Origin: Iphione sp. A-MEVVRFRX5
Taxonomy: Eukaryota
Reading direction: 5' to 3'
DNA length: 64,000 nt
NCBI GenBank assembly: GCA_976226885.1
Contig: OZ320315.1
Location: forward strand, 116,002,001 to 116,066,000
The number at the start of each line of letters is the position of its first letter. Within the stretch, counting starts at the first letter, position 1. The position numbers and the translations under genes are program-made. Positions 5,701 through 46,849 of this stretch are shown here, in pieces. The notes beneath the pieces were generated by a model that did no database searches, was not told the DNA's origin, and saw only the letters and a program-made list of their open reading frames with translations.

Positions 5701-5879
5701 GATAGAAATATGAAAACTCATGAATGATCACAGATTTGAACTGAATGTCCAAAGAGACATACATGTTTCCCAGCAGAAGAATCATCTTTCTCAAAACGTG
5801 TTCATTATTGTCAATTTTCACCAAAACATCATCAATCTCCATCATTCACTTCACCAATTCAATGGGGATAGGGTCACTC

Positions 5880-7232: not shown

Positions 7233-8123
7233 TTAAGAGATGCATTGTCTTGTGCAGGCTCTGGTTCTGGTTCTGGTTCTAGTGAAGTTGTACAACAGCT
7301 TGAAAAAGTCAGTTTCATTAGAATACTTCACCCTGAAAATAAACTCAGCAAGATAAGTATCAAGTAATTCCTTTGAACCACCATGTTTAAGGAGTGTCCT
7401 CTTCACACAGTAACAAGTACCCTCAGTGTTGTTGATGTGCACATCTGTCACCAGATCTTTGAAGGTCAGTGAGTGGTTGACTGTCAGATGTCTATATCCC
7501 TCCTCTCCTAGACAGCCATATGCCTTCCAGCAGTCCAAGGCGATGACAAATCCAGGCACAATGTACTTCTTGATGACTGGAAGGAGAGTTTTCCTGGACT
7601 GGTTCTCAATTTAACAAGAAAAATTTATCATTCTCTTCAAGTCCACCAAAAACTAATTGGCCATTTACATGTTGACCTCTATGGTACTTTCTCTTACAAA
7701 ACTTGCTCTCATCTATCTTCACTCCCACACCAGGGACACCAATCTGTTCACTATCCTTATCCTTGCCATGCAAAAATTAAGCAATCAACTACTACGCCAG
7801 CACATTCTATACCCAGCTGCACCTGCATAAAACTCTGTGGTATCTTTCAGGTCCAGTAGCAAGTGAGCTTGAGGACCTGTACTGGTTTAAGGTGTGTTCT
7901 TTCCATCCAGCTCTCTTCCTAATAGAAATCTTCTGGCACTTGCAACATCTCCCCTCCACACATGTTGGTCAGTCACAAAGCTGGGGTCTCACCAAAGTGA
8001 CAGTTCCCACTGCACACCCACTGCACAATCCCTGAAAATTCCCAAATATCTTCTCCTGCCTCAGCCATTTGTACAAATAACTGGGATCTCTGTATTATCA
8101 TAGAGAAATAGTGACTGGTCCAT
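7233..8123 (-). mobile_element. Merlin / ISXO2-like (IS1595-family DDE) transposase pseudogene, copy A
   Basis: Minus strand reads MDQ start (ATG at 8123), a Cys-rich N-terminus, then QIGVPGVGVKIDESKFCKRKYHRGQHVNGQLVFGGLEEN (~7630-7750), DCWKAY, TVNHS, NNTEG and LLDTYLAEFIFR. These are the hallmark ISXO2/Merlin DDE motifs. Frameshifted. Confidence 0.85.
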
Positions 8124-8139
8124 GACAGAAACAGTATAA

Positions 8140-8240
8140 AATTCTTCAAAGAAAACAATGCAAAAATCACAGAAAGAAAATCACAGTATAATCAAGCAAA
8201 CAAACTGTCAATAAAATCACAAGCAAAATCACATGATTTT
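8140..8240. repeat. AAAATCAC(AG) short direct repeats upstream of the Merlin start codon (present in every monomer and in Merlin copy B)
   Basis: 4-6 imperfect copies of aaaatcac(ag) per monomer (e.g. 9830-9930), and also at 48920-48975. Possibly Merlin subterminal repeats (inference). Confidence 0.6.
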
Positions 8241-8320
8241 GTGGAATAAATGCAATACCAGATGATCTACTCTGCATGTGGGTGAGACACATGGTGACCA
8301 AGGCAGGGAAATGTTCCATC

Positions 8321-8396
8321 TTTTATACCTAGAGGTGGGAAGCCATTCCAGTCAAACTCTGGAGTGGATCGGGGGTGGTCGGGTCTGGGTATAAAA
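8321..8396. promoter_or_regulatory. Back-to-back TATA boxes flanking a GT/CACCC-box-like motif (repeated in each monomer)
   Basis: ttttata at 8321-8327 (TATAAAA on minus), gggggtggtcggg at ~8371-8383, tataaaa at 8390-8396 (plus). Sequence match only; no expression evidence. Confidence 0.3.
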
Positions 8397-11300
8397 ACAG
8401 GAATAACTCCGGAACTAAGGGCAGATTCAAAAAAGGACAAAAGTGTCATGCTGCAGGCCAGAGGGAGGGTAGGAATATGTAGAAGATGGCTGTCAAGGGT
8501 TTCTATCAGAATTAGGGTTGTAAAGCTTTCTGAAAACTTCAAAAACCCCTCAAGGGTAGGATTCCGGAGTTTAGAGTAGATTGGAGGTGGTCGGGTCTGG
8601 TTATTAAAACCAGATCAGGTAAGTGCCACTCACCTACACTAGGCAAATGAATGGCTACAACCACAGGTGCATGCATGTCCATGTAGCTTGTACCAGCCAT
8701 CGTAGGAACTGGCTGATATGGCAGAGCCATATCTATCTACCTGCTCCTCCTCAACCTGACACAGGCCCTAACAACATCCAACTACCCTACGAACTAAATG
8801 AAGAGCCATCTTTCTTTCTGGGTAACTTTCACAAAAAAGAACGCACCTGACATAAATCCCAAAAACCCACTTAACTGAATCTGACTCTGAGGTTACTCAG
8901 GATGATAATTTTCACTTGACAGTAGTACAAGAAGATAATTAGGTTTTGAAATGAATCCTCCATAGTCCACAGATTTTGTACTTTTCTGATTCTGCTTCTG
9001 ACCAGTACCCAGCAAAGGTCAGCCTTTCTTGTCTGTCCAATCTATACAAGTTAAAATTCTCCACTGCTAAATAATTGTTTAGGTACCATTTTCCAGTTTG
9101 GATTTTGTTACAGATATTTCTTATGTTCATATGATTGAGTTTTACTCACATGTTTGACATCATCTGATATGAGTTGACATGTCAAGGTGTTTAACATGAA
9201 ATCAACATGTCGCCTGCATTAGCCATCAGAGGAACCTGTTGATATGGCAGAGCCATATCTACCTGCTCCTCGTCAACCTGACACAGGCCCCAACAACATC
9301 CAACTACCCTAAGAACTAAACTAAGAGCCATCTTTCTTTCTGAGTGTAATTTTCACAAAGAATGCACCTGGTATAAACCCCATAAACTTCTTGATGAGTG
9401 CAAGGAGAGTTTTCCTGGACTGGTTCTCAGTTTAACAAGAAAATATTTCTTAACTAATTGGCCATTCACATGTTGACCTCTATGGTACTTTCTCTCACAA
9501 AATGTGCTCTAATCTATCTTCACTCCCACACCAGGGCCACCAATCTGTTCACTATCCTTCTCCATGACTGCCATACAAAAATTAACCAATCAACTACTAC
9601 GCCAGCACATTCTATACCCAGCTGCACCTGCATAAAACTCTGTGGTATCTTTCAGGTCCAGTAGCAAGTGAGCTTGAGGACCTGTGCTGGTTCAAGGTGT
9701 GTTCTTTCCATCCAGCTCTCTTCCTAGTAGAAATCTTCCAGCACTTACAACACATGTCTCTATATTATCATAGAGAAATAGTGACTGGTCCATGGCAGAA
9801 ACAGTATAAAATTCTTCAAAGAAAACAATGCAAAAATCACAGAAAAATCAGTAAGGAAAATCACAGAAAGAAAATCACAGTAAAATCAAGCAAACAAACT
9901 GTCAATAAAATCACAAGCAAAATCACATGATTTTGTGGAATAAATGCAATACCAGATGATCTACTCTGCATGTGGGTGAGACACATGGTGACCAAGGCAG
10001 GGAAATGTTCCATCTTTTATACCTAGAGGTGGGAAGCCATTCCAGTCAAACTCTGGAGTGGATCGGGGGTGGTCGGGTCTGGGTATAAAAACAGGAATAA
10101 CTCCGGAACTAAGGGCAGATTCAAAAAAGGACAAAAGTGTCATGCTGCAGGCCAGAGGGAGGGTAGGAATATGTAGAAGATGGCTGTCAAGGGTTTCTAT
10201 CAGAATTAGGGTTGTAAAGCTTTCTGAAAACTCCAAAAACCCCTCAAGGGTAGGATTCCGGAGTTTAGAGTAGATTGGAGGTGGTCGGGTCTGGTTATTA
10301 AAACCAGATCAGGTAAGTGCCACTCACCTACACTAGGCAAATGAATGGCTACAACCACAGGTGCATGCATGTCCATGTAGCTTGTACCAGCCATCGTAGG
10401 AACTGGCTGATACGGCAGAGCCATATCTATCTACCTGCTCCTCCTCAACCTGACACAGGCCCTAACAACATCCAACTACCCTACGAACTAAATGAAGAGC
10501 CATCTTTCTTTCTGGGTAACTTTCACAAAAAAGAATGCACCTGACATAAATCCCAAAAACCCACTTAACTGAATCTGACTCTGAGGTTACTCAGGATGAT
10601 AATTTTCACTTGACAGTAGTACAAGAAGATAATTAGGTTTTGAAATGAATCCTCCATAGTCCACAGATTTTGTACTTTTCTGATTCTGCTTCTGACCAGT
10701 ACCCAGCAAAGGTCAGCCTTTCTTGTCTGTCCAATCTATACAAGTTAAAATTCTCCACTGCTGAATAATTGTTTAGGTACCATTTTCCAGTTTGGATTTT
10801 GTTACAGATATTTCTTATGTTCATATGATTGAGTTTTACTCACATGTTTGACATCATCTGATATGAGTTGACATGTCAAGGTGTTTAACATGAAATCAAC
10901 ATGTCGCCTGCATTAGCCATCAGAGGAACCTGTTGATATGGCAGAGCCATATCTACCTGCTCCTCGTCAACCTGACACAGGCCCCAACAACATCCAACTA
11001 CCCTAAGAACTAAACTAAGAGCCATCTTTCTTTCTGAGTGTAATTTTCACAAAGAATGCACCTGGTATAAACCCCATAAACTTCTTGATGAGGAGTGGAA
11101 GGAGAGTTTTCCTGGACTGGTTCTCAGTTGAACAAGAAAACATTTCTTAACTAATTGGCCATTCACATGTTGACCTCTATGGTACTTCCTCTTACAAAAT
11201 GTGCTCTAATCTATCTTCACTCCCACACCAGGGCCACTAATCTGTTCACTATCCTTCTCCATGACTGCCATACAAAAATTAACCAATCAACTACTACGCC

Positions 11301-14300
11301 AGCACATTCTATACCCAGGTGCACCTGCATAAAACTCTGTGGTATCTTTCAGGTCCAGTAGAAAGTGAGCTTGAGGACCTGTGCTGGTTCAAGGTGTGTT
11401 CTTTCCATCCAGCTCTCTTCCTAGTAGAAATCTTCAAGCACTTACAACACATGCTGATCAGTGGCATAGCTTGGACCTGTCACCAAAGTGACAGTTCCCA
11501 CTGCACACCCACTGTGCAACCCCTGAAAATTGTCAAATATCTTCTCCTGCCATAGCCTTTTATATAAATACCTGGGATCTCTATATTATCATAGAGAAAT
11601 AGTGACTGGTCCATGGCAGAAACAGTATAAAATTCTTCAAAGAAAACAATGCAAAAATCACAGAAAAATCAGTAAGGAAAATCACAGAAAGAAAATCACA
11701 GTAAAATCAAGCAAACAAACTGTCAATAAAATCACAAGCAAAATCACATGATTTTGTGGAATAAATGCAATACCAGATGATCTACTCTGCATGTGGGTGA
11801 GAAACATGGTGACCAAGGCAGGGAAATGTTCCATCTTTTATACCTAGAGGTGGGAAGCCATTCCAGTCAAACTCTGAAGTGGATCAGGGGTGGTCGGGTC
11901 TGGGTATAAAAACAGGAATAACTCCGGAACTAAGGGCAGATTCAAAAAAGGACAAAAGTGTCATGCTGCAGGCCAGAGGGAGGGTAGGAATATGTAGAAG
12001 ATGGCTGTCAAGGGTTTCTATCAGAATTAGGGTTGTAAAGCTTTCTGAAAACTTCAAAAACCCCTCAAGGGTAGGATTCCGGAGTTTAGAGTAGATTGGA
12101 GGTGGTCGGGTCTGGTTATTAAAACCAGATCAGGTAAGTGCCACTCACCTACACTAGGCAAATGAATGGCTACAACCACAGGTGCATGCATGTCCATGTA
12201 GCTTGTACCAGCCATCGTAGGAACTGGCTGATATGGCAGAGCCATATCTATCTACCTGCTCCTCCTCAACCTGACACAGGCCCTAACAACATCCAACTAC
12301 CCTACGAACTAAATGAAGAGCCATCTTTCTTTCTGGGTAACTTTCACAAAAAAGAACGCACCTGACATAAATCCCAAAAACCCACTTAACTGAATCTGAC
12401 TCTGAGGTTACTCAGGATGATAATTTTCACTTGACAGTAGTACAAGAAGATAATTAGGTTTTGAAATGAATCCTCCATAGTCCACAGATTTTGTACTTTT
12501 CTGATTCTGCTTCTGACCAGTACCCAGCAAAGGTCAGCCTTTCTTGTCTGTCCAATCTATACAAGTTAAAATTCTCCACTGCTAAATAATTGTTTAGGTA
12601 CCATTTTCCAGTTTGGATTTTGTTACAGATATTTCTTATGTTCATATGATTGAGTTTTACTCACATGTTTGACATCATCTGATATGAGTTGACATGTCAA
12701 GGTGTTTAACATGAAATCAACATGTCGCCTGCATTAGCCATCAGAGGAACCTGTTGATATGGCAGAGCCATATCTACCTGCTCCTCGTCAACCTGACACA
12801 GGCCCCAACAACATCCAACTACCCTAAGAACTAAACTAAGAGCCATCTTTCTTTCTGAGTGTAATTTTCACAAAGAATGCACCTGGTATAAACCCCATAA
12901 ACTTCTTGATGAGTGCAAGGAGAGTTTTCCTGGACTGGTTCTCAGTTTAACAAGAAAATATTTCTTAACTAATTGGCCATTCACATGTTGACCTCTATGG
13001 TACTTTCTCTCACAAAATGTGCTCTAATCTATCTTCACTCCCACACCAGGGCCACCAATCTGTTCACTATCCTTCTCCATGACTGCCATACAAAAATTAA
13101 CCAATCAACTACTACGCCAGCACATTCTATACCCAGCTGCACCTGCATAAAACTCTGTGGTATCTTTCAGGTCCAGTAGCAAGTGAGCTTGAGGACCTGT
13201 GCTGGTTCAAGGTGTGTTCTTTCCATCCAGCTCTCTTCCTAGTAGAAATCTTCCAGCACTTACAACACATGTCTCTATATTATCATAGAGAAATAGTGAC
13301 TGGTCCATGGCAGAAACAGTATAAAATTCTTCAAAGAAAACAATGCAAAAATCACAGAAAAATCAGTAAGGAAAATCACAGAAAGAAAATCACAGTAAAA
13401 TCAAGCAAACAAACTGTCAATAAAATCACAAGCAAAATCACATGATTTTGTGGAATAAATGCAATACCAGATGATCTACTCTGCATGTGGGTGAGACACA
13501 TGGTGACCAAGGCAGGGAAATGTTCCATCTTTTATACCTAGAGGTGGGAAGCCATTCCAGTCAAACTCTAGAGTGGATCGGGGGTGGTCGGGTCTGGGTA
13601 TAAAAACAGGAATAACTCTGGAACTAAGGGCAGATTCAAAAAAAGACAAAAGTGTCATGCTGCAGGCCAGAGGGAGGGTAGGAATATGTAGAAGATGGCT
13701 GTCAAGGGTTTCTATCAGAATTAGGGTTGTAAAGCTTTCTGAAAACTCCAAAAACCCCTCAAGGGTAGGATTCCGGAGTTTAGAGTAGATTGGAGGTGGT
13801 CGGGTCTGGTTATTAAAACCAGATCAGGTAAGTGCCACTCACCTACACTAGGCAAATGAATGGCTACAACCACAGGGGCATGCATGTCCATGTAGCTTGT
13901 ACCAGCCATCGTAGGAACTGGCTGATACGGCAGAGCCATATCTATCTACCTGCTCCTCCTCAACCTGACACAGGCCCTAACAACATCCAACTACCCTACG
14001 AACTAAATGAAGAGCCATCTTTCTTTCTGGGTAACTTTCACAAAAAAGAATGCACCTGACATAAATCCCAAAAACCCACTTAACTGAATCTGACTCTGAG
14101 GTTACTCAGGATGATAATTTTCACTTGACAGTAGTACAAGAAGATAATTAGGTTTTGAAATGAATCCTCCATAGTCCACAGATTTTGTACTTTTCTGATT
14201 CTGCTTCTGACCAGTACCCAGCAAAGGTCAGCCTTTCTTGTCTGTCCAATCTATACAAGTTAAAATTCTCCACTGCTGAATAATTGTTTAGGTACCATTT

Positions 14301-17300
14301 TCCAGTTTGGATTTTGTTACAGATATTTCTTATGTTCATATGATTGAGTTTTACTCACATGTTTGACATCATCTGATATGAGTTGACATGTCAAGGTGTT
14401 TAACATGAAATCAACATGTCGCCTGCATTAGCCATCAGAGGAACCTGTTGATATGGCAGAGCCATATCTACCTGCTCCTCGTCAACCTGACACAGGCCCC
14501 AACAACATCCAACTACCCTAAGAACTAAACTAAGAGCCATCTTTCTTTCTGAGTGTAATTTTCACAAAGAATGCACCTGGTATAAACCCCATAAACTTCT
14601 TGATGAGGAGTGGAAGGAGAGTTTTCCTGGACTGGTTCTCAGTTGAACAAGAAAACATTTCTTAACTAATTGGCCATTCACATGTTGACCTCTATGGTAC
14701 TTCCTCTTACAAAATGTGCTCTAATCTATCTTCACTCCCACACCAGGGCCACTAATCTGTTCACTATCCTTCTCCATGACTGCCATACAAAAATTAACCA
14801 ATCAACTACTACGCCAGCACATTCTATACCCAGGTGCACCTGCATAAAACTCTGTGGTATCTTTCAGGTCCAGTAGAAAGTGAGCTTGAGGACCTGTGCT
14901 GGTTCAAGGTGTGTTCTTTCCATCCAGCTCTCTTCCTAGTAGAAATCTTCAAGCACTTACAACACATGCTGATCAGTGGCATAGCTTGGACCTGTCACCA
15001 AAGTGACAGTTCCCACTGCACACCCACTGTGCAACCCCTGAAAATTGTCAAATATCTTCTCCTGCCATAGCCTTTTATATAAATACCTGGGATCTCTATA
15101 TTATCATAGAGAAATAGTGACTGGTCCATGGCAGAAACAGTATAAAATTCTTCAAAGAAAACAATGCAAAAATCACAGAAAAATCAGTAAGGAAAATCAC
15201 AGAAAGAAAATCACAGTAAAATCAAGCAAACAAACTGTCAATAAAATCACAAGCGAAATCACATGATTTTGTGGAATAAATGCAATACCAGATGATCTAC
15301 TCTGCATGTGGGTGAGAAACATGGTGACCAAGGCAGGGAAATGTTCCATCTTTTATACCTAGAGGTGGGAAGCCATTCCAGTCAAACTCTGAAGTGGATC
15401 AGGGGTGGTCGGGTCTGGGTATAAAAACAGGAATAACTCCGGAACTAAGGGCAGATTCAAAAAAGGACAAAAGTGTCATGCTGCAGGCCAGAGGGAGGGT
15501 AGGAATATGTAGAAGATGGCTGTCAAGGGTTTCTATCAGAATTAGGGTTGTAAAGCTTTCTGAAAACTTCAAAAACCCCTCAAGGGTAGGATTCCGGAGT
15601 TTAGAGTAGATTGGAGGTGGTCGGGTCTGGTTATTAAAACCAGATCAGGTAAGTGCCACTCACCTACACTAGGCAAATGAATGGCTACAACCACAGGTGC
15701 ATGCATGTCCATGTAGCTTGTACCAGCCATCGTAGGAACTGGCTGATATGGCAGAGCCATATCTATCTACCTGCTCCTCCTCAACCTGACACAGGCCCTA
15801 ACAACATCCAACTACCCTACGAACTAAATGAAGAGCCATCTTTCTTTCTGGGTAACTTTCACAAAAAAGAACGCACCTGACATAAATCCCAAAAACCCAC
15901 TTAACTGAATCTGACTCTGAGGTTACTCAGGATGATAATTTTCACTTGACAGTAGTACAAGAAGATAATTAGGTTTTGAAATGAATCCTCCATAGTCCAC
16001 AGATTTTGTACTTTTCTGATTCTGCTTCTGACCAGTACCCAGCAAAGGTCAGCCTTTCTTGTCTGTCTAATCTATACAAGTTAAAATTCTCCACTGCTAA
16101 ATAATTGTTTAGGTACCATTTTCCAGTTTGGATTTTGTTACAGATATTTCTTATGTTCATATGATTGAGTTTTACTCACATGTTTGACATCATCTGATAT
16201 GAGTTGACATGTCAAGGTGTTTAACATGAAATCAACATGTCGCCTGCATTAGCCATCAGAGGAACCTGTTGATATGGCAGAGCCATATCTACCTGCTCCT
16301 CGTCAACCTGACACAGGCCCCAACAACATCCAACTACCCTAAGAACTAAACTAAGAGCCATCTTTCTTTCTGAGTGTAATTTTCACAAAGAATGCACCTG
16401 GTATAAACCCCATAAACTTCTTGATGAGTGCAAGGAGAGTTTTCCTGGACTGGTTCTCAGTTTAACAAGAAAATATTTCTTAACTAATTGGCCATTCACA
16501 TGTTGACCTCTATGGTACTTTCTCTCACAAAATGTGCTCTAATCTATCTTCACTCCCACACCAGGGCCACCAATCTGTTCACTATCCTTCTCCATGACTG
16601 CCATACAAAAATTAACCAATCAACTACTACGCCAGCACATTCTATACCCAGGTGCACCTGCATAAAACTCTGTGGTATCTTTCAGGTCCAGTAGCAAGTG
16701 AGCTTGAGGACCTGTGCTGGTTCAAGGTGTGTTCTTTCCATCCAGCTCTCTTCCTAGTAGAAATCTTCCAGCACTTACAACACATGTCTCTATATTATCA
16801 TAGAGAAATAGTGACTGGTCCATGGCAGAAACAGTATAAAATTCTTCAAAGAAAACAATGCAAAAATCACAGAAAAATCAGTAAGGAAAATCACAGAAAG
16901 AAAATCACAGTAAAATCAAGCAAACAAACTGTCAATAAAATCACAAGCAAAATCACATGATTTTGTGGAATAAATGCAATACCAGATGATCTACTCTGCA
17001 TGTGGGTGAGACACATGGTGACCAAGGCAGGGAAATGTTCCATCTTTTATACCTAGAGGTGGGAAGCCATTCCAGTCAAACTCTAGAGTGGATCGGGGGT
17101 GGTCGGGTCTGGGTATAAAAACAGGAATAACTCTGGAACTAAGGGCAGATTCAAAAAAAGACAAAAGTGTCATGCTGCAGGCCAGAGGGAGGGTAGGAAT
17201 ATGTAGAAGATGGCTGTCAAGGGTTTCTATCAGAATTAGGGTTGTAAAGCTTTCTGAAAACTCCAAAAACCCCTCAAGGGTAGGATTCCGGAGTTTAGAG

Positions 17301-20300
17301 TAGATTGGAGGTGGTCGGGTCTGGTTATTAAAACCAGATCAGGTAAGTGCCACTCACCTACACTAGGCAAATGAATGGCTACAACCACAGGGGCATGCAT
17401 GTCCATGTAGCTTGTACCAGCCATCGTAGGAACTGGCTGATACGGCAGAGCCATATCTATCTACCTGCTCCTCCTCAACCTGACACAGGCCCTAACAACA
17501 TCCAACTACCCTACGAACTAAATGAAGAGCCATCTTTCTTTCTGGGTAACTTTCACAAAAAAGAATGCACCTGACATAAATCCCAAAAACCCACTTAACT
17601 GAATCTGACTCTGAGGTTACTCAGGATGATAATTTTCACTTGACAGTAGTACAAGAAGATAATTAGGTTTTGAAATGAATCCTCCATAGTCCACAGATTT
17701 TGTACTTTTCTGATTCTGCTTCTGACCAGTACCCAGCAAAGGTCAGCCTTTCTTGTCTGTCCAATCTATACAAGTTAAAATTCTCCACTGCTGAATAATT
17801 GTTTAGGTACCATTTTCCAGTTTGGATTTTGTTACAGATATTTCTTATGTTCATATGATTGAGTTTTACTCACATGTTTGACATCATCTGATATGAGTTG
17901 ACATGTCAAGGTGTTTAACATGAAATCAACATGTCGCCTGCATTAGCCATCAGAGGAACCTGTTGATATGGCAGAGCCATATCTACCTGCTCCTCGTCAA
18001 CCTGACACAGGCCCCAACAACATCCAACTACCCTAAGAACTAAACTAAGAGCCATCTTTCTTTCTGAGTGTAATTTTCACAAAGAATGCACCTGGTATAA
18101 ACCCCATAAACTTCTTGATGAGGAGTGGAAGGAGAGTTTTCCTGGACTGGTTCTCAGTTGAACAAGAAAACATTTCTTAACTAATTGGCCATTCACATGT
18201 TGACCTCTATGGTACTTCCTCTTACAAAATGTGCTCTAATCTATCTTCACTCCCACACCAGGGCCACTAATCTGTTCACTATCCTTCTCCATGACTGCCA
18301 TACAAAAATTAACCAATCAACTACTACGCCAGCACATTCTATACCCAGGTGCACCTGCATAAAACTCTGTGGTATCTTTCAGGTCCAGTAGAAAGTGAGC
18401 TTGAGGACCTGTGCTGGTTCAAGGTGTGTTCTTTCCATCCAGCTCTCTTCCTAGTAGAAATCTTCAAGCACTTACAACACATGCTGATCAGTGGCATAGC
18501 TTGGACCTATCACCAAAGTGACAGTTCCCACTGCACACCCACTGTGCAACCCCTGAAAATTGTCAAATATCTTCTCCTGCCATAGCCTTTTATATAAATA
18601 CCTGGGATCTCTATATTATCATAGAGAAATAGTGACTGGTCCATGGCAGAAACAGTATAAAATTCTTCAAAGAAAACAATGCAAAAATCACAGAAAAATC
18701 AGTAAGGAAAATCACAGAAAGAAAATCACAGTAAAATCAAGCAAACAAACTGTCAATAAAATCACAAGCGAAATCACATGATTTTGTGGAATAAATGCAA
18801 TACCAGATGATCTACTCTGCATGTGGGTGAGAAACATGGTGACCAAGGCAGGGAAATGTTCCATCTTTTATACCTAGAGGTGGGAAGCCATTCCAGTCAA
18901 ACTCTGAAGTGGATCAGGGGTGGTCGGGTCTGGGTATAAAAACAGGAATAACTCCGGAACTAAGGGCAGATTCAAAAAAGGACAAAAGTGTCATGCTGCA
19001 GGTCAGAGGGAGGGTAGGAATATGTAGAAGATGGCTGTCAAGGGTTTCTATCAGAATTAGGGTTGTAAAGCTTTCTGAAAACTCCAAAAACCCCTCAAGG
19101 GTAGGATTCCGGAGTTTAGAGTAGATTGGAGGTGGTCGGGTCTGGTTATTAAAACCAGATCAGGTAAGTGCCACTCACCTACACTAGGCAAATGAATGGC
19201 TACAACCACAGGTGCATGCATGTCCATGTAGCTTGTACCAGCCATCGTAGGAACTGGCTGATATGGCAGAGCCATATCTATCTACCTGCTCCTCCTCAAC
19301 CTGACACAGGCCCTAACAACATCCAACTACCCTACGAACTAAATGAAGAGCCATCTTTCTTTCTGGGTAACTTTCACAAAAAAGAACGCACCTGACATAA
19401 ATCCCAAAAACCCACTTAACTGAATCTGACTCTGAGGTTACTCAGGATGATAATTTTCACTTGACAGTAGTACAAGAAGATAATTAGGTTTTGAAATGAA
19501 TCCTCCATAGTCCACAGATTTTGTACTTTTCTGATTCTGCTTCTGACCAGTACCCAGCAAAGGTCAGCCTTTCTTGTCTGTCCAATCTATACAAGTTAAA
19601 ATTCTCCACTGCTAAATAATTGTTTAGGTACCATTTTCCAGTTTGGATTTTGTTACAGATATTTCTTATGTTCATATGATTGAGTTTTACTCACATGTTT
19701 GACATCATCTGATATGAGTTGACATGTCAAGGTGTTTAACATGAAATCAACATGTCGCCTGCATTAGCCATCAGAGGAACCTGTTGATATGGCAGAGCCA
19801 TATCTACCTGCTCCTCGTCAACCTGACACAGGCCCCAACAACATCCAACTACCCTAAGAACTAAACTAAGAGCCATCTTTCTTTCTGAGTGTAATTTTCA
19901 CAAAGAATGCACCTGGTATAAACCCCATAAACTTCTTGATGAGTGCAAGGAGAGTTTTCCTGGACTGGTTCTCAGTTTAACAAGAAAATATTTCTTAACT
20001 AATTGGCCATTCACATGTTGACCTCTATGGTACTTTCTCTCACAAAATGTGCTCTAATCTATCTTCACTCCCACACCAGGGCCACCAATCTGTTCACTAT
20101 CCTTCTCCATGACTGCCATACAAAAATTAACCAATCAACTACTACGCCAGCACATTCTATACCCAGGTGCACCTGCATAAAACTCTGTGGTATCTTTCAG
20201 GTCCAGTAGCAAGTGAGCTTGAGGACCTGTGCTGGTTCAAGGTGTGTTCTTTCCATCCAGCTCTCTTCCTAGTAGAAATCTTCCAGCACTTACAACACAT

Positions 20301-25938: not shown

Positions 25939-28900
25939 GTGGATCAGGGGTGGTCGGGTCTGGGTATAAAAACAGGAATAACTCCGGAACTAAGGGCAGA
26001 TTCAAAAAAGGACAAAAGTGTCATGCTGCAGGTCAGAGGGAGGGTAGGAATATGTAGAAGATGGCTGTCAAGGGTTTCTATCAGAATTAGGGTTGTAAAG
26101 CTTTCTGAAAACTCCAAAAACCCCTCAAGGGTAGGATTCCGGAGTTTAGAGTAGATTGGAGGTGGTCGGGTCTGGTTATTAAAACCAGATCAGGTAAGTG
26201 CCACTCACCTACACTAGGCAAATGAATGGCTACAACCACAGGTGCATGCATGTCCATGTAGCTTGTACCAGCCATCGTAGGAACTGGCTGATACGGCAGA
26301 GCCATATCTATCTACCTGCTCCTCCTCAACCTGACACAGGCCCTAACAACATCCAACTACCCTACGAACTAAATGAAGAGCCATCTTTCTTTCTGGGTAA
26401 CTTTCACAAAAAAGAATGCACCTGACATAAATCCCAAAAACCCACTTAACTGAATCTGACTCTGAGGTTACTCAGGATGATAATTTTCACTTGACAGTAG
26501 TACAAGAAGATAATTAGGTTTTGAAATGAATCCTCCATAGTCCACAGATTTTGTACTTTTCTGATTCTGCTTCTGACCAGTACCCAGCAAAGGTCAGCCT
26601 TTCTTGTCTGTCCAATCTATACAAGTTAAAATTCTCCACTGCTGAATAATTGTTTAGGTACCATTTTCCAGTTTGGATTTTGTTACAGATATTTCTTATG
26701 TTCATATGATTGAGTTTTACTCACATGTTTGACATCATCTGATATGAGTTGACATGTCAAGGTGTTTAACATGAAATCAACATGTCGCCTGCATTAGCCA
26801 TCAGAGGAACCTGTTGATATGGCAGAGCCATATCTACCTGCTCCTCGTCAACCTGACACAGGCCCCAACAACATCCAACTACCCTAAGAACTAAACTAAG
26901 AGCCATCTTTCTTTCTGAGTGTAATTTTCACAAAGAATGCACCTGGTATAAACCCCATAAACTTCTTGATGAGGAGTGGAAGGAGAGTTTTCCTGGACTG
27001 GTTCTCAGTTGAACACGAAAACATTTCTTAACTAATTGGCCATTCACATGTTGACCTCTATGGTACTTCCTCTTACAAAATGTGCTCTAATCTATCTTCA
27101 CTCCCACACCAGGGCCACTAATCTGTTCACTATCCTTCTCCATGACTGCCATACAAAAATTAACCAATCAACTACTACGCCAGCACATTCTTTACCCAGG
27201 TGCACCTGCATAAAACTCTGTGGTATCTTTCAGGTCCAGTAGAAAGTGAGCTTGAGGACCTGTGCTGGTTCAAGGTGTGTTCTTTCCATCCAGCTCTCTT
27301 CCTAGTAGAAATCTTCCAGCACTTACAACACATGCTGATCAGTGGCATAGCTTGGACCTGTCACCAAAGTGACAGTTCCCACTGCACACCCACTGTGCAA
27401 CCCCTGAAAATTGTCAAATATCTTCTCCTGCCATAGCCTTTTATATAAATAACTGGGATCTCTATATTATCATAGAGAAATAGTGACTGGTCCATGGCAG
27501 AAACAGTATCAAATTCTTCAAAGAAAACAATGCAAAAATCACCGAAAAATCAGTAAGGAAAATCACAGAAAGAAAATCACAGTAAAATCAAGCAAACAAA
27601 CTGTCAATAAAATCACAAGCAAAATCACACGATTTTGTGGAATAAATGCAATACCAGATGATCTACTCTGCATGTGGGTGAGACACATGGTGACCAAGGC
27701 AGGGAAATGTTCCATCTTTTATACTTAGAGGTGGGAAGCCATTCCAGTCAAACTCTGGAGTGGATCGGGGTGGTCGGGTCTGGGTATAAAAACAGGAATA
27801 ACTCCGGAACTAAGGGCAGATTCAAAAAAGGACAAAAGTGTCATGTTGCAGGCCAGAGGGAGGGTAGGAATATGTAGAAGATGGCTGTCAAGGGTTTCTA
27901 TCAGAATTAGGGTTGTAAAGCTTTCTGAAAATTCCAAAAACCCCTCAAGGGTAGGATTCCGGAGTTTAGAGTAGATTGGAGGTGGTCGGGTCTGGTTATT
28001 AAAACCTGATCAGGTAAGTGCCACTCACCTACACTAGGCAAATGAATGGCTACAACCACAGGTGCATGCATGTCCATGTAGCTTGTACCAGCCATCGTAG
28101 GAACTGGCTGATACGGCAGAGCCATATCTATCTACCTGCTCCTCCACAACCTGACACAGGCCCTAACAACATCCAACTACCCTACGAACTAAATGAAGAG
28201 CCATCTTTCTTTCTGGGTAACTTTCACAAAAAAGAATGCACCTGACATAAATCCCAAAAACCCACTTAACTGAATCTGACTCTGAGGTTACTCAGGATGA
28301 TAATTTTCACTTGACAGTAGTACAAGAAGATAATTAGGTTTTGAAATGAATCCTCCATAGTCCACAGATTTTGTACTTTTCTGATTCTGCTTCTGACCAG
28401 TACCCAGCAAAGGTCAGCCTTTCTTGTCTGTCCAATCTATACAAGTTAAAATTCTCCACTGCTGAATAATTGTTTAGGTACCATTTTCCAGTTTGGATTT
28501 TGTTACAGATATTTCTTATGTTCATATGATTGAGTTTTACTCACATGTTTGACATCATCTGATATGAGTTGACATGTCAAGGTGTTTAACATGAAATCAA
28601 CATGTCGCCTGCATTAGCCATCAGAGGAACCTGTTGATATGGCAGAGCCATATCTACCTGCTCCTCGTCAACCTGACACAGGCCCCAACAACATCCAACT
28701 ACCCTAAGAACTAAACTAAGAGCCATCTTTCTTTCTGAGTGTAATTTTCACAAAGAATGCACCTGGTATAAACCCCATAAACTTCTTGATGAGGAGTGGA
28801 AGGAGAGTTTTCCTGGACTGGTTCTCAGTTGAACACGAAAACATTTCTTAACTAATTGGCCATTCACATGTTGACCTCTATGGTACTTCCTCTTACAAAA

Positions 28901-31900
28901 TGTGCTCTAATCTATCTTCACTCCCACACCAGGGCCACTAATCTGTTCACTATCCTTCTCCATGACTGCCATACAAAAATTAACCAATCAACTACTACGC
29001 CAGCACATTCTTTACCCAGGTGCACCTGCATAAAACTCTGTGGTATCTTTCAGGTCCAGTAGAAAGTGAGCTTGAGGACCTGTGCTGGTTCAAGGTGTGT
29101 TCTTTCCATCCAGCTCTCTTCCTAGTAGAAATCTTCCAGCACTTACAACACATGCTGATCAGTGGCATAGCTTGGACCTGTCACCAAAGTGACAGTTCCC
29201 ACTGCACACCCACTGTGCAACCCCTGAAAATTGTCAAATATCTTCTCCTGCCATAGCCTTTTATATAAATAACTGGGATCTCTATATTATCATAGAGAAA
29301 TAGTGACTGGTCCATGGCAGAAACAGTATAAAATTCTTCAAAGAAAACAATGCAAAAATCACAGAAAAATCAGTAAGGAAAATCACAGAAAGAAAATCAC
29401 AGTAAAATCAAGCAAACAAACTGTCAATAAAATCACAAGCAAAATCACACGATTTTGTGGAATAAATGCAATACCAGATGATCTACTCTGCATGTGGGTG
29501 AGACACATGGTGACCAAGGCAGGGAAATGTTCCATCTTTTATACCTAGAGGTGAGAAGCCATTCCAGTCAAACTCTGGAGTGGATCGGGGGTGGTCGGGT
29601 CTGGGTATAAAAACAGGAATAACTCCGGAACTAAGGGCAGATTCAAAAAAGGACAAAAGTGTCATGTTGCAGGCCAGAGGGAGGGTAGGAATATGTAGAA
29701 GATGGCTGTCAAGGGTTTCTATCAGAATTAGGGTTGTAAAGCTTTCTGAAAATTCCAAAAACCCCTCAAGGGTAGGATTCCGGAGTTTAGAGTAGATTGG
29801 AGGTGGTCGGGTCTGGTTATTAAAACCAGATCAGGTAAGTGCCACTCACCTACACTAGGCAAATGAATGGCTACAACCACAGGGGCATGCATGTCCATGT
29901 AGCTTGTACCAGCCATCGTAGGAACTGGCTGATACGGCAGAGCCATATCTATCTACCTGCTCCTCCTCAACCTGACACAGGCCCTAACAACATCCAACTA
30001 CCCTACGAACTAAATGAAGAGCCATCTTTCTTTCTGGGTAACTTTCACAAAAAAGAATGCACCTGACATAAACCCCAAAAACCCACTTAACTGAATCTGA
30101 CTCTGAGGTTACTCAGGATGATAATTTTCACTTGACAGTAGTACAAGAAGATAATTAGGTTTTGAAATGAATCCTCCATAGTCCACAGATTTTGTACTTT
30201 TCTGATTCTGCTTCTGACCAGTACCCAGCAAAGGTCAGCCTTTCTTGTCTGTCCAATCTATACAAGTTAAAATTCTCCACTGCTGAATAATTGTTTAGGT
30301 ACCATTTTCCAGTTTGGATTTTGTTACAGATATTTCTTATGTTCATATGATTGAGTTTTACTCACATGTTTGACATCATCTGATATGAGTTGACATGTCA
30401 AGGTGTTTAACATGAAATCAACATGTCGCCTGCATTAGCCATCAGAGGAACCTGTTGATATGGCAGAGCCATATCTACCTGCTCCTCGTCAACCTGACAC
30501 AGGCCCCAACAACATCCAACTACCCTAAGAACTAAACTAAGAGCCATCTTTCTTTCTGAGTGTAATTTTCACAAAGAATGCACCTGGTATAAACCCCATA
30601 AACTTCTTGATGAGTGGAAGGAGAGTTTTCCTGGACTGGTTCTCAGTTGAACAAGAAAACATTTCTTAACTAATTGGCCATTCACATGTTGACCTCTATG
30701 GTACTTTCTCTTACAAAATGTGCTCTAATCTATCTTCACTCCCACACCAGGGCCACCAATCTGTTCACTATCCTTCTCCATGACTGCCATACAAAAATTA
30801 ACCAATCAACTACTAGGCCAGCACATTCTATACCCAGCTGCACCTGCATAAAACTCTGTGGTATCTTTCAGGTCCAGTAGCAAGTGAGCTTGAGGACCTG
30901 TGCTGGTTTAAGGTGTGTTCTTTCCATCCAGTTCTCTTCCTAGTAGAAATCTTCCAGCACTTACAACACATGCTGATCAGTGGCATAGCTTGGGCCTGTC
31001 ACCAAAGTGACAGTTCCCACTGCACACCCACTGCGCAACCCCTGAAAATTATCAAATATCTTCTCCTGCCATAGCCTTTTATATAAATAACTGGGATCTC
31101 TATATTATCATAGAGAAATAGTGACTGGTCCATGGCAGAAACAGTATAAAATTCTTCAAAGAAAACAATGCAAAAATCACAGAAAAATCAGTAAGGAAAA
31201 TCACAGAAAGAAAATCACAGTAAAATCAAGCAAACAAACTGTCAATAAAATCACAAGCAAAATCACATGATTTTGTGGAAAAAAATGCAATACCAGATGA
31301 TCTACTCTGCATGTGGGTGAGACACATGGTGACCAAGGCAGGGAAATGTTCCATCTTTTATACCTAGAGGTGGGAAGCCATTCCAGTCAAACTCTGGAGT
31401 GGATCAGGGGTGTTCGGGTCTGGGTATAAAAACAGGAATAACTCCGGAACTAAGGGCAGATTCAAAAAAGGACAAAAGTGTCATGCTGCAGGCCAGAGGG
31501 AGGGTAGGAATATGTAGAAGATGGCTGTCAAGGGTTTCTATCAGAATTAGGGTTGTAAAGCTTTCTGAAAACTCAAAAAACCCCTCAAGGGTAGGATTCT
31601 GGAGTTTAGAGTAGATTGGAGGTGGTCGGGTCTGGTTATTAAAACCAGATCAGGTAAGTGCCACTCACCTACACTAGGCAAATGAATGGCTACAACCACA
31701 GGGGCATGCATGTCCATGTAGCTTGTATCAGCCATCGTAGGAACTGGCTGATACGGCAGAGCAATATCTATCTACCTGCTCCTCCTCAACCTGACACAGG
31801 CCCCAACAACATCCAACTACCCTACGAACTAAATGAAGAGCCATCTTTCTTTCTGGGTAACTTTCACAAAAAAGAATGCACCTGACATAAACCCCAAAAA

Positions 31901-34900
31901 CCCACTTAACTGAATCTGACTCTGAGGTTACTCAGGATGATAATTTTCACTTGACAGTAGTACAAGAAGATAATTAGGTTTTGAAATGAATCCTCCATAG
32001 TCCACAGATTTTGTACTTTTCTGATTCTGCTTCTGACCAGTACCCAGCAAAGGTCAGCCTTTCTTGTCTGTCCAATCTATACAAGTTAAAATTCTCCACT
32101 GCTGAATAATTGTTTAGGTACCATTTTCCAGTTTGGATTTTGTTACAGATATTTCTTATGTTCATATGATTGAGTTTTACTCACATGTTTGACATCATCT
32201 GATATGAGTTGACATGTCAAGGTGTTTAACATGAAATCAACATGTCGCCTGCATTAGCCATCAGAGGAACCTGTTGATATGGCAGAGCCATATCTACCTG
32301 CTCCTCGTCAACCTGACACAGGCCCCAACAACATCCAACTACCCTAAGAACTAAACTAAGAGCCATCTTTCTTTCTGAGTGTAATTTTCACAAAGAATGC
32401 ACCTGGTATAAACCCCATAAACTTCTTGATGAGTGGAAGGAGAGTTTTCCTGGACTGGTTCTCAGTTTAACAAGAAAACATTTCTTAACTAATTGGCCAT
32501 TCACATGTTGACCTCTATGGTACTTTCTCTTACAAAATGTGCTCTAATCTATCTTCACTCCCACACCAGGGCCACCAATCTGTTCACTATCCTTCTCCAT
32601 GACTGCCATACAAAAATTAACCAATCAACTACTACGCCAGCACATTCTATACCCAGCTGCACCTGCATAAAACTCTGTGGTATCTTTCAGGTCCAGTAGC
32701 AAGTGAGCTTGAGGACCTGTGCTGGTTCAAGGTGTGTTCTTTCCATCCAGTTCTCTTCCTAGTAGAAATCTTCCAGCACTTACAACACATGCTGATCAGT
32801 GGCATAGCTTGGGCCTGTCACCAAAGTGACAGTTCCCACTGCACACCCACTGCGCAACCCCTGAAAATTATCAAATATCTTCTCCTGCCATAGCCTTTTA
32901 TATAAATAACTGGGATCTCTATATTATCATAGAGAAATAGTGACTGGTCCATGGCAGAAACAGTATAAAATTCCTCAAAGAAAACAATGCAAAAATCACA
33001 GAAAAATCAGTAAGGAAAATCACAGAAAGAAAATCACAGTAAAATCAAGCAAACAAACTGTCAATAAAATCACAAGCAAAATCACATGATTTTGTGGAAT
33101 AAATGCAATACCAGATGATCTACTCTGCATGTGGGTGAGACACATGGTGACCAAGGCAGGGAAATGTTCCATCTTTTATACCTAGAGGTGGGAAGCCATT
33201 CCAGTCAAACTCTGGAGTGGATCGGGGGTGGTCGGGTCTGGGTTGTAAAGCTTTCTGAAAACTCCAAAAACCCCTCAAGGGTAGGATTCCGGAGTTTAGA
33301 GTAGATTGGAGGTGGTCGGGTCTGGTTATTAAAACCAGATCAGGTAAGTGCCACTCACCTACACTAGGCAAATGAATGGCTACAACCACAGGGGCATGCA
33401 TGTCCATGTAGCTTGTACCAGCCATCGTAGGAACTGGCTGATACGGCAGAGCCATATCTATCTACCTGCTCCTCCTCAACCTGACACAGGCCCTAACAAC
33501 ATCCAACTACCCTACGAACTAAATGAAGAGCCATCTTTCTTTCTGGGTAACTTTCACAAAAAAGAATGCACCTGACATAAACCCCAAAAACCCACTTAAC
33601 TGAATCTGACTCTCAAGTTATGACAGTAGTCCTGAGGTTACTCAGGATGATAATTTTCACTTGACAGTAGTACAAGAAGATAATTAGGTTTTGAAATGAA
33701 TCCTCCATAGTCCACAGATTTTGTACTTTTCTGATTCTGCTTCTGACCAGTATCCAGCAAAGGTCAGCCTTTCTTGTCTGTCCAATCTATACAAGTTAAA
33801 ATTCTCCACTGCTGAATAATTGTTTAGGTACCATTTTCCAGTTTGGATTTTGTTACAGATATTTCTTATGTTCATATGATTGAGTTTTACTCACATGTTT
33901 GACATCATCTGATATGAGTTGACATGTCAAGGTGTTTAACATGAAATCAACATGTCGCCTGCATTAGCCATCAGAGGAACCTGTTGATATGGCAGAGCCA
34001 TATCTACCTGCTCCTCGTCAACCTGACACAGGCCCCAACAACATCCAACTACCCTAAGAACTAAACTAAGAGCCATCTTTCTTTCTGAGTGTAATTTTCA
34101 CAAAGAATGAACCTGGTATAAACCCCATAAACTTCTTGATGAGTGGAAGGAGAGTTTTCCTGGACTGGTTCTCAGTTTAACAAGAAAACATTTCTTAACT
34201 AATTGGCCATTCACATGTTGACCTCTATGGTACTTTCTCTTACAAAATGTGCTCTAATCTATCTTCACTCCCACACCAGGGCCACCAATCTGTTCACTAT
34301 CCTTCTCCATGACTGCCATACAAAAATTAACCAATCAACTACTACGCCAGCACATTCTATACCCAGCTGCACCTGCATAAAACTCTGTGGTATCTTTCAG
34401 GTCCAGTAGCAAGTGAGCTTGAGGACCTGTGCTGGTTCAAGGTGTGTTCTTTCCATCCAGTTCTCTTCCTAGTAGAAATCTTCCAGCACTTACAACACAT
34501 GCTGATCAGTGGCATAGCTTGGGCCTGTCACCAAAGTGACAGTTCCCACTGCACACCCACTGCGCAACCCCTGAAAATTGTCAAATATCTTCTCCTGCCA
34601 TAGCCTTTTATATAAATAACTGGGATCTCTATATTATCATAGAGAAATAGTGACTGGTCCCTGGCAGAAACAGTATAAAATTATTCAAAGAAAACAATGC
34701 AAAAATCACAGAAAAATCAGTAAGGAAAATCACAGAAAGAAAATCACAGTAAAATCAAGCAAACAAACTGTCAATAAAATCACAAGCAAAATCACATGAT
34801 TTTGTGGAATAAATGCAATACCAGATGATCTACTCTGCATGTGGGTGAGACACATGGTGACCAAGGCAGGGAAATGTTCCATCTTTTATACCTAGAGGTG

Positions 34901-36329
34901 GGAAGCCATTCCAGTCAAATTCTGGAGTGGATCGGGGGTGGTCGGGTCTGGGTATAAAAACAGGAATAACTCTGGAACTAAGGGCAGATTAAAAAAAGGA
35001 CAAAAGTGTCATGCTGCAGGCCAGAGGGAGGGTAGGAATATGTAGAAGATGGCTGTCAAGGGTTTCTATCAGAATTAGGGTTGTAAAGCTTTCTGAAAAC
35101 TCCAAAAACCCCTCAAGGGTAGGATTCCGGAGTTTAGAGTAGATTGGAGGCGGTCGGGTCTGGTTATTAAAACCAGATCAGGTAAGTGCCACTCACCTAC
35201 ACTAGGCAAATGAATGGCTACAACCACAGGTGCATGCATGTTCATGTAGCTTGTACCAGCCATCGTAGGAACTGGCTGATACGGCAGAGCCATATCTATC
35301 TACTTGCTCCTCCTCAACCTGACACAGGCCCCAACAACATCCAACTACCCTACGAACTAAATGAAGAGCCATCTTTCTTTCTGGGTAACTTTCACAAAAA
35401 AGAATGCACCTGACATAAACCCCAAAAACCCACTTAACTGAATCTGACTCTCAAGTTATGACAGTAGTCCTGAGGTTACTGAGGATGATGATTTTCACTT
35501 GACAGTAGTACAAGAAGATAATTAGGTTTTCACATAAATCATCCTTAGTCCACAGATTTCGTACTTTTTCAGATTTTTCTTCTTATGTTCATATGATTGA
35601 CTTTGACTCACATGTTTGACATCATCTGATACAATTGATATGTCAAAGTGTTTTACATGAAACCAATATATAAAATCATCACATTGCACATTTCCCTCAC
35701 CCAGTTTCCCAGGATCCTCCAGCAATTCCTCTCAAAACAAATACTTGTTGTCCAACAGTTCATGTATAGGCCGTGCAGTTTCTGGGGTCAGTAAGTCATT
35801 GAACCCATTGTGCTCCTCAATTCTAAAGTTCACAATACCAATTTATCAGCCTCCTCCTTTCTTCCAGCTCAACCCGTTGATTTTTGTCATGGTATGTTTT
35901 TCCATTCAAATTACTTGGTTTCTGATCAATATTTACTTTTTGCTGGAGGCTCATAAAACTTCAACCTTTCTTCATCTATTCATAACTGTCCTTACTTTTT
36001 CATCTTACTTTTAGGGATAATTGCAAAGCACTAATCCAGAAAATTCTGCTTGCAATAAAACCCACAGACTAACAATAATGGTAGAGTAGTCACTCCTGGC
36101 AGCACAGGCTCTTGAGACAGAACTAGTGTCTTTGTCAGTCTGTTCACTCATAGTTATAGGTGTTTCATTCTTATAGGTAATGTCTTCAGGAATGGCAATG
36201 TTATCTGTAGTACCTATTGATGTAGACTAATGTATTCAGTGTTCTTATGAAGTGAGATGAGAATGGGCTATTAATGGACAACAGCTATGCAAATAGGTCC
36301 CATACAACATGAAATGAACTAGCATTTTG

Positions 36330-36475
36330 TTTTAGCCATGAAATTCAGCTGTTATGGCGTGGTCAGAATCCAATGCTGCTGACACTTATTATGGATGTCA
36401 TACTACATGAATTCTGGAGGTGCTGCCATCATGTCCGTCTCAAATGCAAGATCATTTGGATGCTTGGGGCGGACG
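36330..36475 (-). mobile_element. MULE transposase fragment
   Basis: Nucleotide paralog of 46090-46190; minus frame PKHPNDLAFETDMMAAPPEF matches the linker upstream of the MULE domain. Confidence 0.6.
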
Positions 36476-38014: not shown

Positions 38015-38165
38015 AGAGGGACAGAGGCAGACAGGGATAGAGAGGGAGGGAAGGAGGATGGGAGAAGGATTGAGTGAGACAGAGATGGAGAGTGAGGGAA
38101 AAAGAGGGAGACAGGTGGAGAGGGGGTAGGAAGGTGGAGGAAGATTTAGGGAGGGAGAGAGACCT
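38015..38165. repeat. GA-rich low-complexity tract inside transposase intron 2
   Basis: Purine-rich gagggacagaggcagacagggatagagagggagggaagg... run. Confidence 0.8.
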
Positions 38166-46830: not shown

Positions 46831-46849
46831 TGCCTCATCCTTACTTTAT

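Follow-up and report, generated by a model that had tools for sequence, protein, structure and literature searches.

The window, a 64,000-nucleotide stretch of DNA, contains a long tandem array built from pieces of transposable elements (TEs), and it raises the question of how such an array was formed and whether it could serve as an amplified source of RNA directed against the Merlin transposon. The original prediction had described a young 28-kb macrosatellite whose monomer joins three repeat families and which, if transcribed on the plus strand, would raise the dose of anti-Merlin sequence about 15-fold. Our analysis of the genome sequence leads us to favour, with some reserve, a single-locus satellite lying in a ~200-kb strand-biased graveyard of transposons. 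This graveyard is probably a piRNA cluster of the unistrand type, with transcription on plus, in which the array would supply ~15 times the anti-Merlin guides of one copy.

Extent and copy structure of the array

The window held 15 head-to-tail periods of ~1.7 or 1.82 kb (1.69-1.82 kb), ~28 kb in total and ~99% identical, in agreement with the predicted extent. An anchor sequence occurred 15 times, with spacings of 1694 and 1821 bp that alternated five times and were followed by spacings of 1820, 1821, 1819 and 1710 bp. Homology to the monomer extended over 7565-35583 and again over 35580-35669. The main parts are:

7565..35669, no strand assigned: macrosatellite at a single locus, with 15 periods and 16 Merlin-junction anchors
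9405..26982, no strand assigned: higher-order part, five 3,515-bp dimers
26983..34149, no strand assigned: four single monomers, 8-30 substitutions from other units
35440..36474, minus: right end of the array, 8.6-9.3% diverged from the monomer and passing into native flank and part of a MULE transposase (36313-36474)

The genome was searched with positions 8560-9420, and the 39 matches placed the array at a single locus: the 16 at 92-100% identity were all inside the window, and the other 23 were partial (73-97%), those above 89% being just 35-43 bp long. No near-identical full monomer was found outside the array by this search, and Rfam gave no match to the monomer. With tandem units of more than 1 kb at one locus, a homogeneous core and diverged edges, the array is a macrosatellite.

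Within each dimer the short monomer lacked 124 bp of Merlin. In the dimer part, short units differed from each other by 0-5 substitutions, long units by 0-8 and the two types by 12-22; two pairs of units were identical, so the dimer count could be off. The last single monomer lacked 128 bp between the two GT motifs described below and carried a 20-bp insertion. Internal units differed overall by 0-30 substitutions, and the array edges were 7.3% and 8.6-9.3% diverged. The array is therefore young in its homogenisation, for which the figure given is 0-5 substitutions within each dimer type, and not in its founding, as the edges are 7-9% diverged.

Origin of the monomer

The monomer combined four families, namely Merlin, a non-LTR repeat, an acidic open reading frame (ORF) present as two pieces, and an accessory gene of env-bearing LTR elements, all of them sense on minus. 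The predicted chimera thus stood, with four families in place of three and a higher-order dimer in addition. The modules and their relatives in the window are:

9386..10054, minus: module a in its short variant, comprising the Merlin leader and the 5' part of the transposase
11080-11874, minus: module a, long variant, codons 1-199, 12% substitutions from intact copies
10054..10304, minus: module b, from a 229-233-bp tandem repeat in the 5' region of a dispersed non-LTR retroelement, of which it has one unit and the beginning of the following one, ~70% identical
10302..10563, minus: module c1, start of the orphan acidic ORF (first ~60 codons) with the DNA upstream of it, interrupted by a stop and a 4-bp insertion
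10640..10750, minus: module d, last ~35 codons of the accessory ORF ('family X')
10700..10900, no strand assigned: spacer Y, already a neighbour of the acidic ORF in a paralogous cassette (89%) that lies 16 kb past the window
10900..11075, minus: module c2, the other 5' piece of the acidic ORF, lying at the founding junction
7062..8360, minus: founding Merlin remnant, with its leader and an entire though disrupted transposase ORF, lacking terminal inverted repeats (TIRs)
48418..48961, minus: second Merlin remnant, internally deleted
700..4572, minus: decayed LTR element that bears env and contains copies of family X
52137..52741, minus: broken acidic ORF copy

Module a matched Merlin (PF12762) at 9386-10054 on the minus strand, and the predicted start codon (ATG at 9793-9791) and AAAATCAC repeats in the leader were both present. 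The Merlin ORF of the array stopped near codon 199 of 326, ahead of the second and third catalytic residues, and the pieces carried stops and deletions. The stretch of the founding remnant at 7565-8050 was 7.3% diverged from the array copies. Complete Merlins with TIRs and 8-9-bp target duplications were present at five of six loci examined in the genome; these five were 2.1-3.5% from the C19 copy, and four had open ORFs. The source family is Merlin, on the evidence of its IS1595-like DDE transposase (PF12762), GG-starting TIRs and 8-9-bp target duplications, the latter two being typical of Merlin / IS1595-like transposons. Module a shares this descent, whereas the array copies lack both TIRs, to which no match within 3 mismatches was found anywhere in the window, and two of the three catalytic residues; an array unit does not qualify as a mobile Merlin.

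Module b carried a GT/TATA-like motif on plus at 10056-10092 and 10268-10304. The predicted duplication of this motif, at a distance of 212 bp, was borne out, and it arises because module b consists of one 232-bp unit and the start of the next. The suggestion that it acts as a promoter found no support, since the module is a retroelement repeat lying antisense and the TATA is absent from two source units of the repeat. Three large composites also contained the 232-bp repeat together with an acidic ORF, but at a distance of 4 kb from each other and with a relative orientation opposite to that in the monomer.

The predicted paralogy of the acidic-ORF 5' end was recovered between 8608-8820 and 52533-52741 (83-84% identity). 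The second acidic piece existed as predicted, although in the first monomer it spanned about 175 bp (9206-9381) rather than ~125 bp; module c2 was 11.7% diverged from c1 and 10.8% from a paralog at C4:116.082 Mb. The acidic ORF had no Pfam family, 0 of 7995 scored candidates reached E<=0.01, and its residues 1-70 gave no usable Atlas match. It might be a MULE gene, but MULE pieces flanked broken copies only and none of five stretches with intact ones.

Module d resembled family X weakly as DNA (72%, E 6.6e-4), and the predicted relationship held at the protein level (55%, tblastx E 1e-6). Family X is identified by where it lies in gypsy-type LTR elements that carry env, namely between pol and env; it had no Pfam family, and its Atlas matches were all at 0.80 or below. 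A further family X piece was located at 49223-49680.

The monomer is not the interior of one known TE, its modules having their matches in different families and at different places in the genome, and by the genome search it is not dispersed; the predicted birth from TE debris agrees with this. One Maverick or one giant element as the source of all modules was rejected. Fragments of Merlin, the non-LTR 5' repeat, the acidic ORF and the LTR accessory gene may first have met in the graveyard. One rearrangement would then have joined Merlin codon ~199 to the spacer via the 175-bp sister acidic-ORF piece and produced a tandem duplicate, which unequal crossing-over would have expanded and homogenised, most recently as the 3.5-kb dimer. 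The amplification itself was probably neutral or weakly favoured.

Strand bias of the surrounding domain and potential for guide RNAs

The array lies in a domain whose remnants face predominantly one way:

1..64000, minus: window as part of the strand-biased domain C4 ~115.90-116.10 Mb, 13 of 15 remnants (10 of 12 groups) on minus

In a census based on Pfam-checked seed proteins, with related copies collapsed into groups, 35 of 38 transposon remnants and 20 of 23 independent groups of the domain (~200 kb; 197 kb) were on minus (p=0.0005), the domain edges having been drawn after the data were seen. The window alone gave p=0.039, and a symmetric region of +-100 kb had 21 of 26 groups on minus (p=0.0025). 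The flanks were near 50:50 (15/23 and 10/23 on minus), and four 100-kb controls had minus counts of 1/1, 2/6, 7/22 and 0/3. An annotation-free count of dispersed repeat pairs gave 116 of 116 direct in the domain, and 8/20 and 54/94 in the flanks. The left half is a patchwork of local env-LTR duplicates, and for this reason neither its events nor its repeat pairs count as independent. Some controls leaned as well (C17, 15/22 plus and 19/23 pairs direct; C4:114.48 Mb, 8/8 blocks). An earlier, smaller census had given 13 of 16 groups (p=0.02; scan-corrected p 0.09-0.11); the larger one had a scan-corrected p of 0.001-0.022, but one plus event was lost to grouping.

A second satellite of the acidic-ORF 5' end was found 18 Mb from the array, with 44 hits at C4:97.54-97.56 Mb, all 44 co-oriented. 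The domain around it (C4:97.465-97.635 Mb) was picked for this satellite without regard to strand bias, and 30 of its 31 groups shared one strand (p=3e-8); it was LINE-rich, and just 5 pairs of dispersed repeats were present within it. At C1:16.28-16.33 Mb, a third locus with an acidic 5' piece, there were two MULE blocks only, too few to gauge bias. Across the two domains the bias was followed by DNA transposon pieces (Merlin, pogo, MULE, Harbinger and Maverick polymerase), and also by a mononegavirus L remnant and a gypsy element with 99.8% identical LTRs; in the domain of the array it was shared by LINEs and DIRS as well.

Because nearly all surrounding transposon remnants face one way, the array is likely inside a small-RNA-producing locus, and this layout, a long TE-dense locus with its remnants on one strand, resembles unistrand piRNA clusters. 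If the cluster is transcribed on plus, the array, being sense on minus, would be read through as antisense RNA. An upstream promoter, rather than the TATA-like motif of the monomer, would drive a long read-through RNA that would be cut into piRNAs. The predicted antisense orientation and ~15-fold dose hold as geometry, and the domain bias in the same direction and the five young complete Merlins add support. The genome encoded five Piwi-domain genes, counted by domain with PIWI and AGO clades together.

Among 768 plus-strand 28-mers of the Merlin piece, 342 matched intact Merlins with <=3 mismatches and just 8 matched exactly. Fifteen perfectly paired bases starting at g2-g5 are described as the minimum for PIWI slicing (PMC10338343), and 160/768 had such a stretch. 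The single left Merlin copy already yields guides by this rule (224/1134). The 28-mers of the two acidic-ORF pieces had no exact match to intact copies; 20/235 and 31/149 matched with <=3 mismatches, and 13/235 and 9/149 satisfied the 15-base rule.

Instead, a host gene or lncRNA on the plus strand might contain the domain as one very long intron, from which sense insertions were purged as transcript-disturbing, the array being neutral and giving no small RNAs. LINE and LTR elements in mammalian introns do lean antisense (PMC3088655), and a GPCR ORF on plus is located immediately to the right of the domain. We consider this rather unlikely, as the bias is near-complete in both domains and is shared by short DNA-transposon and RNA-virus fragments, which we would expect less to bear sense-strand splice or poly(A) hazards; the intron survey left DNA transposons out (PMC3088655).

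It is quite improbable that the array was selected as an amplified suppressor aimed mainly at the acidic-ORF family rather than Merlin, like the Fem/Mom or Su(Ste) arrays. Amplification of one 5' end at two loci, as ~30 pieces here and as the second satellite, antisense in two biased domains, would suit such a role, as would a family with only six long open frames found (298-337 aa). The poor guide match to intact acidic ORFs speaks against it, and so does the position of acidic-ORF relatives beside unrelated 1.4-1.8-kb macrosatellites, since a tendency to expand in tandem may simply be a property of such regions. A broader proposal is only a little less doubtful, namely that piRNA clusters here tune their output through macrosatellites, the acidic-ORF 5' end having been amplified antisense twice on one chromosome and once fused to Merlin, as a dosage-amplified multi-target suppressor of a selfish orphan gene and a still-active Merlin.

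Silent heterochromatin with an inert array, its co-orientation inherited from repeated local direct duplications, would fit the 79 of 79 direct internal repeats of >=250 bp in the domain, many of them local duplicates (68-100%), and the strong CpG depletion of the array (o/e 0.12-0.18), but it is highly improbable, as the bias persists after related copies are collapsed and the second domain is near-completely biased with so few dispersed repeat pairs.

Under the favoured reading, a piRNA cluster transcribed on plus, the array would offer a direct test of piRNA dose, with the Merlin fragment present once at the edge and 15 times inside, against five complete targets; reads could be assigned to units because of unit-specific variants and junctions. 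At least two domains of 170-200 kb are near-completely strand-biased, and the bias takes in LINEs, DNA transposons and a remnant of an RNA virus, not gypsy elements alone. If no small RNAs are produced, the array would be an ordinary TE-derived satellite.

Comparison with known systems

Searches of an open-access library yielded no paper on flamenco-like strand bias in lophotrochozoans and nothing relevant on Merlin-derived satellites. The domain resembles flamenco and the flam-like unistrand clusters of Drosophila in its hundreds of kilobases, its TE fragments on one strand and its env-bearing gypsy remnants (PMC10643416), and flam-like loci were likewise first chosen on the basis of genome sequence, with the strand bias of 100-kb windows as the criterion (PMC10643416). 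In that description, however, the bias comes from Gypsy only and the piRNAs were sequenced, whereas the bias described here extends to LINEs, DIRS, DNA transposons and a remnant of an RNA virus, and the evidence is genome sequence; under a strict definition, with Gypsy alone driving the bias, the domain is not flam-like.

The tandem R1 islands in the D. simulans flamenco locus are also TE fragments tandemly expanded inside a unistrand cluster (PMC10495008). Much of the piRNA output of the cluster is described as coming from them, without an evident benefit, and they consist of one element, often in sense orientation (PMC10495008), in contrast to the four-family, wholly antisense monomer with its higher-order dimer. 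The Bombyx Fem and pyralid Mom arrays are, like the array, homogeneous tandem monomers; they have 12-233 copies and are piRNA sources, and Fem is said to be chimeric, made up of transposon pieces fused together (PMC12487030). The Fem and Mom arrays are W-linked and yield one dominant piRNA against Masc (PMC12487030).

A TE-derived satellite of ~16 hobo copies (PMC5932611) is similar in its DNA-transposon sequence, copy number and single locus. Such satellites are described as beginning with a double insertion of whole elements (PMC5932611), whereas the array unit has no TIRs and appears to have begun with a rearrangement among dead fragments.

Structure and history of the array

The macrosatellite of the original prediction was borne out and extended by self-comparison of the window (C4:116,002,001-116,066,000), which placed the tandem array at 7565-35583. 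An anchor sequence occurs 15 times, with spacings of 1694 and 1821 bp alternating five times, followed by 1820, 1821, 1819 and 1710 bp; cutting at the Merlin junction gave 16 starts and 15 periods, a copy number read from the assembly (1.18 Gb, 89 contigs) alone. The first ten units form five 3,515-bp dimers, in which 124 bp of Merlin are missing from the short unit. Substitutions numbered 0-5 among short units, 0-8 among long units and 12-22 between the two types; the four right-hand monomers differ from the rest by 8-30, and two pairs of units in the array are identical. Divergence from the array copies is 7.3% at the left edge (7565-8050) and 8.6-9.3% at the right edge. On whether the monomer is single-locus or dispersed, a genome search with 8560-9420 returned 39 matches, 16 of them at 92-100% and all 16 in the window, which places it at a single locus. 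The homogeneous units, the older edges and the confinement of near-identical matches to the window indicate a single locus with an older founding event and recent homogenisation. Directly right of the array, a 421-bp tandem duplication (94%, 36420-37268) starts within a MULE remnant.

Modules of the monomer and their sources

The Merlin piece lies on the minus strand (PF12762). It takes in a leader containing AAAATCAC repeats, the start codon ATG (9793-9791) and the coding sequence up to roughly codon 199 of 326. It contains stops, keeps D148 and has lost D210 and E247, all three of which we take to be catalytic residues, as in the DDE family. Five of the six source Merlin loci examined have terminal inverted repeats (TIRs) and 8-9-bp target duplications; these five differ by 2.1-3.5% from the copy on contig C19, and four have an open ORF. 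The window gave no match to the Merlin TIRs. Counting substitutions only, the array piece differs by 12.0% from intact source copies, while its BLAST identity of 79% includes gaps.

Module b matches at ∼70% the 229-233-bp tandem units present at many loci, which keep a conserved order inside a 2.5-kb segment that is itself dispersed (111 matches, with 40 scored out of 97 candidates). Downstream of this segment come a gag-like frame, which contains cysteine-histidine motifs and gave no Pfam hit, and a reverse transcriptase on the same strand. We take module b to represent a non-LTR element's 5' region, putatively sense on minus in the monomer. That a GT/TATA module occurs twice per monomer held true, because the piece comprises one repeat unit and the beginning of the following one. 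TATA is absent from the motif site in the two source units aligned, and the 28-base motif gave 15 matches in the genome, all in the array. Many copies of the non-LTR element are concentrated at C26:55.9-56.27 Mb, <0.4 Mb from the contig end, and at C19:74.07-74.50 Mb.

The two acidic-ORF pieces come from an orphan family, for which no relatives were found in Pfam, among scored candidates or by Atlas search. The protein is Pro/Ala/Glu-rich with a Cys-Cys-Trp N-terminus, and two copies are identical over residues 1-59. Elsewhere in the genome this family has six long open frames, 298-337 aa in length, in the following stretches (L handles, with coordinates counted within each stretch):

L050:4804-5793 (+), acidic-ORF long open frame
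L133, acidic-ORF long open frame
L049:8356-9303, acidic-ORF long open frame
L039, acidic-ORF long open frame
L040/L055, acidic-ORF long open frame

Module d is the tail of family X, an accessory ORF of ∼180 aa that young gypsy-type LTR elements carry between pol and a baculovirus-F-like env; the genome contains at least 150 related matches:

Window 700-4572; L116-L118, L120-L122, L124-L125: stretches of this young gypsy-type family, which has LTRs of ∼2.4 kb, an F-like env and a ∼180-aa unnamed gene

The order of acidic 5' end, spacer and array right flank is already found in a paralogous cassette 16 kb outside the window, so the array appears to have been carved out in situ. At the Merlin junction, the second acidic piece is as close to this cassette (10.8% divergence) as to the first piece (11.7%), and probably arose by templated insertion or sister-cassette crossover. 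Dispersed composites at C22:7.83-7.89, C11:94.56-94.63 and C19:70.20-70.27 Mb have up to ∼58 kb in common, mostly at 75-96%; besides an intact acidic ORF, each contains several short tandem arrays and a 1.43-1.79-kb macrosatellite of its own, and no transposase was found for the composites as a whole.

Strand bias around the array and at a second domain

All four monomer modules are sense on minus, as is most of the neighbourhood. A tblastn census of TE remnants covered 514 kb around the window, using seed proteins verified by Pfam or by position and masking the array; counts were made before (events) and after (groups) collapsing related copies. From -101 to +96 kb, the small seed set placed 21/24 events and 13/16 groups on minus (p=0.02, scan-corrected 0.09-0.11). 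With MULE, Harbinger and Maverick polymerase seeds added, these became 35/38 events and 20/23 groups, one plus event being absorbed by grouping (p=0.0005, scan-corrected 0.001-0.022). In this enlarged census minus groups made up 10/12 in the window, 21/26 within a symmetric ±100 kb, 15/23 and 10/23 in the flanks, and 1/1, 2/6, 7/22 and 0/3 in four 100-kb controls. Independently of annotation, dispersed repeat pairs in the domain were direct in 116/116 cases (non-independent pairs, with the left half of the domain pieced together from local duplicates); the flanks gave 8/20 and 54/94, three controls 9/21, 11/17 and 19/23, and the fourth, dominated by a tandem array, 2776/2795.

The domain holds a minus-strand gypsy with 99.8% identical LTRs and, ∼3 kb outside the window, an endogenous RNA-virus remnant abutting a LINE (L031:2758-5169, minus), whose 804-aa open frame matches the Mononegavirales RNA polymerase (PF00946, E 9e-110). 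At G000:C4:115.90-115.98 Mb (L147-L154), fragments of env and accessory genes from several LTR families are shuffled and duplicated at 68-100%, always directly. A Maverick polymerase remnant lies in the window (53983-54489), and a set of Maverick-like genes in long open frames lies left of the domain (L135-L136, C4:115.785-115.801 Mb). Five of the scanned proteins, all LINE-associated ORFs, carry a NADAR domain (PF08719; L034:1796-3679, L118:3444-4934, L130, L159, L169), and a 441-aa open frame at L134:7450-8772 (+) matched the RNA ligase family PF09414 (E 2e-16).

Another satellite from the acidic-ORF 5' end is located at C4:97.54-97.56 Mb. It comprises 15.2 copies of an 897-bp period at 86% along with longer units and gave 44 hits, and the surrounding 170 kb was chosen solely for it:

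G000:C4:97,465,001-97,635,000 (L227-L238, L088, L036-L038, L089), second biased domain, open at both ends and no shorter than 170 kb

Here 30/31 groups lie on minus (p=3e-8; 14 LINE, 5 MULE, 5 DIRS, 3 pogo, 2 LTR and 1 Merlin, with 1 LINE opposite), the 23-kb satellite is co-oriented, and there are just 5 internal repeat pairs. At a third locus with one acidic piece (C1:16.28-16.33 Mb), two MULE blocks were the only TE blocks. At C4:114.48-114.52 Mb (L127-L130), 8/8 TE blocks lie on minus over 40 kb, possibly a further such domain, and strand-biased domains may thus be common in this genome. The main rival explanation is that co-orientation reflects the antisense bias of intronic elements, as described in PMC3088655.

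Guide potential and comparison with known systems

The long Merlin piece yields 768 plus-strand 28-mers, of which 8 match an intact copy exactly, 342 within 3 mismatches and 553 within 5; 160 pair perfectly over 15 bases starting at g2-g5, the reported minimum for PIWI slicing (PMC10338343). By the same rule the remaining modules matched their best known targets poorly (13/235, 9/149 (acidic-ORF pieces) and 20/224), and for the family X piece 3/84 28-mers fell within 5 mismatches. Merlin is thus the best-matched candidate silencing target. The genome has five Piwi-domain genes, a count that takes PIWI and AGO clades together.

Judged from sequence, we consider it rather likely that the array would work like a tandem expansion within a unistrand piRNA cluster. 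In the published work compared, Drosophila flam-like clusters were predicted from strand bias and confirmed by small RNAs, their bias being Gypsy-specific (PMC10643416); in molluscs, Gypsy and DNA transposons are the elements for which piRNA clusters show enrichment (PMC6128900), and a hobo array of 16 copies is known (PMC5932611). The closest case to a neutral expansion of the array is the D. simulans flamenco locus, whose tandem R1 islands yield many piRNAs without evident use (PMC10495008), and the closest to a selected one is Bombyx Fem, a chimeric TE-derived tandem piRNA source (PMC12487030).
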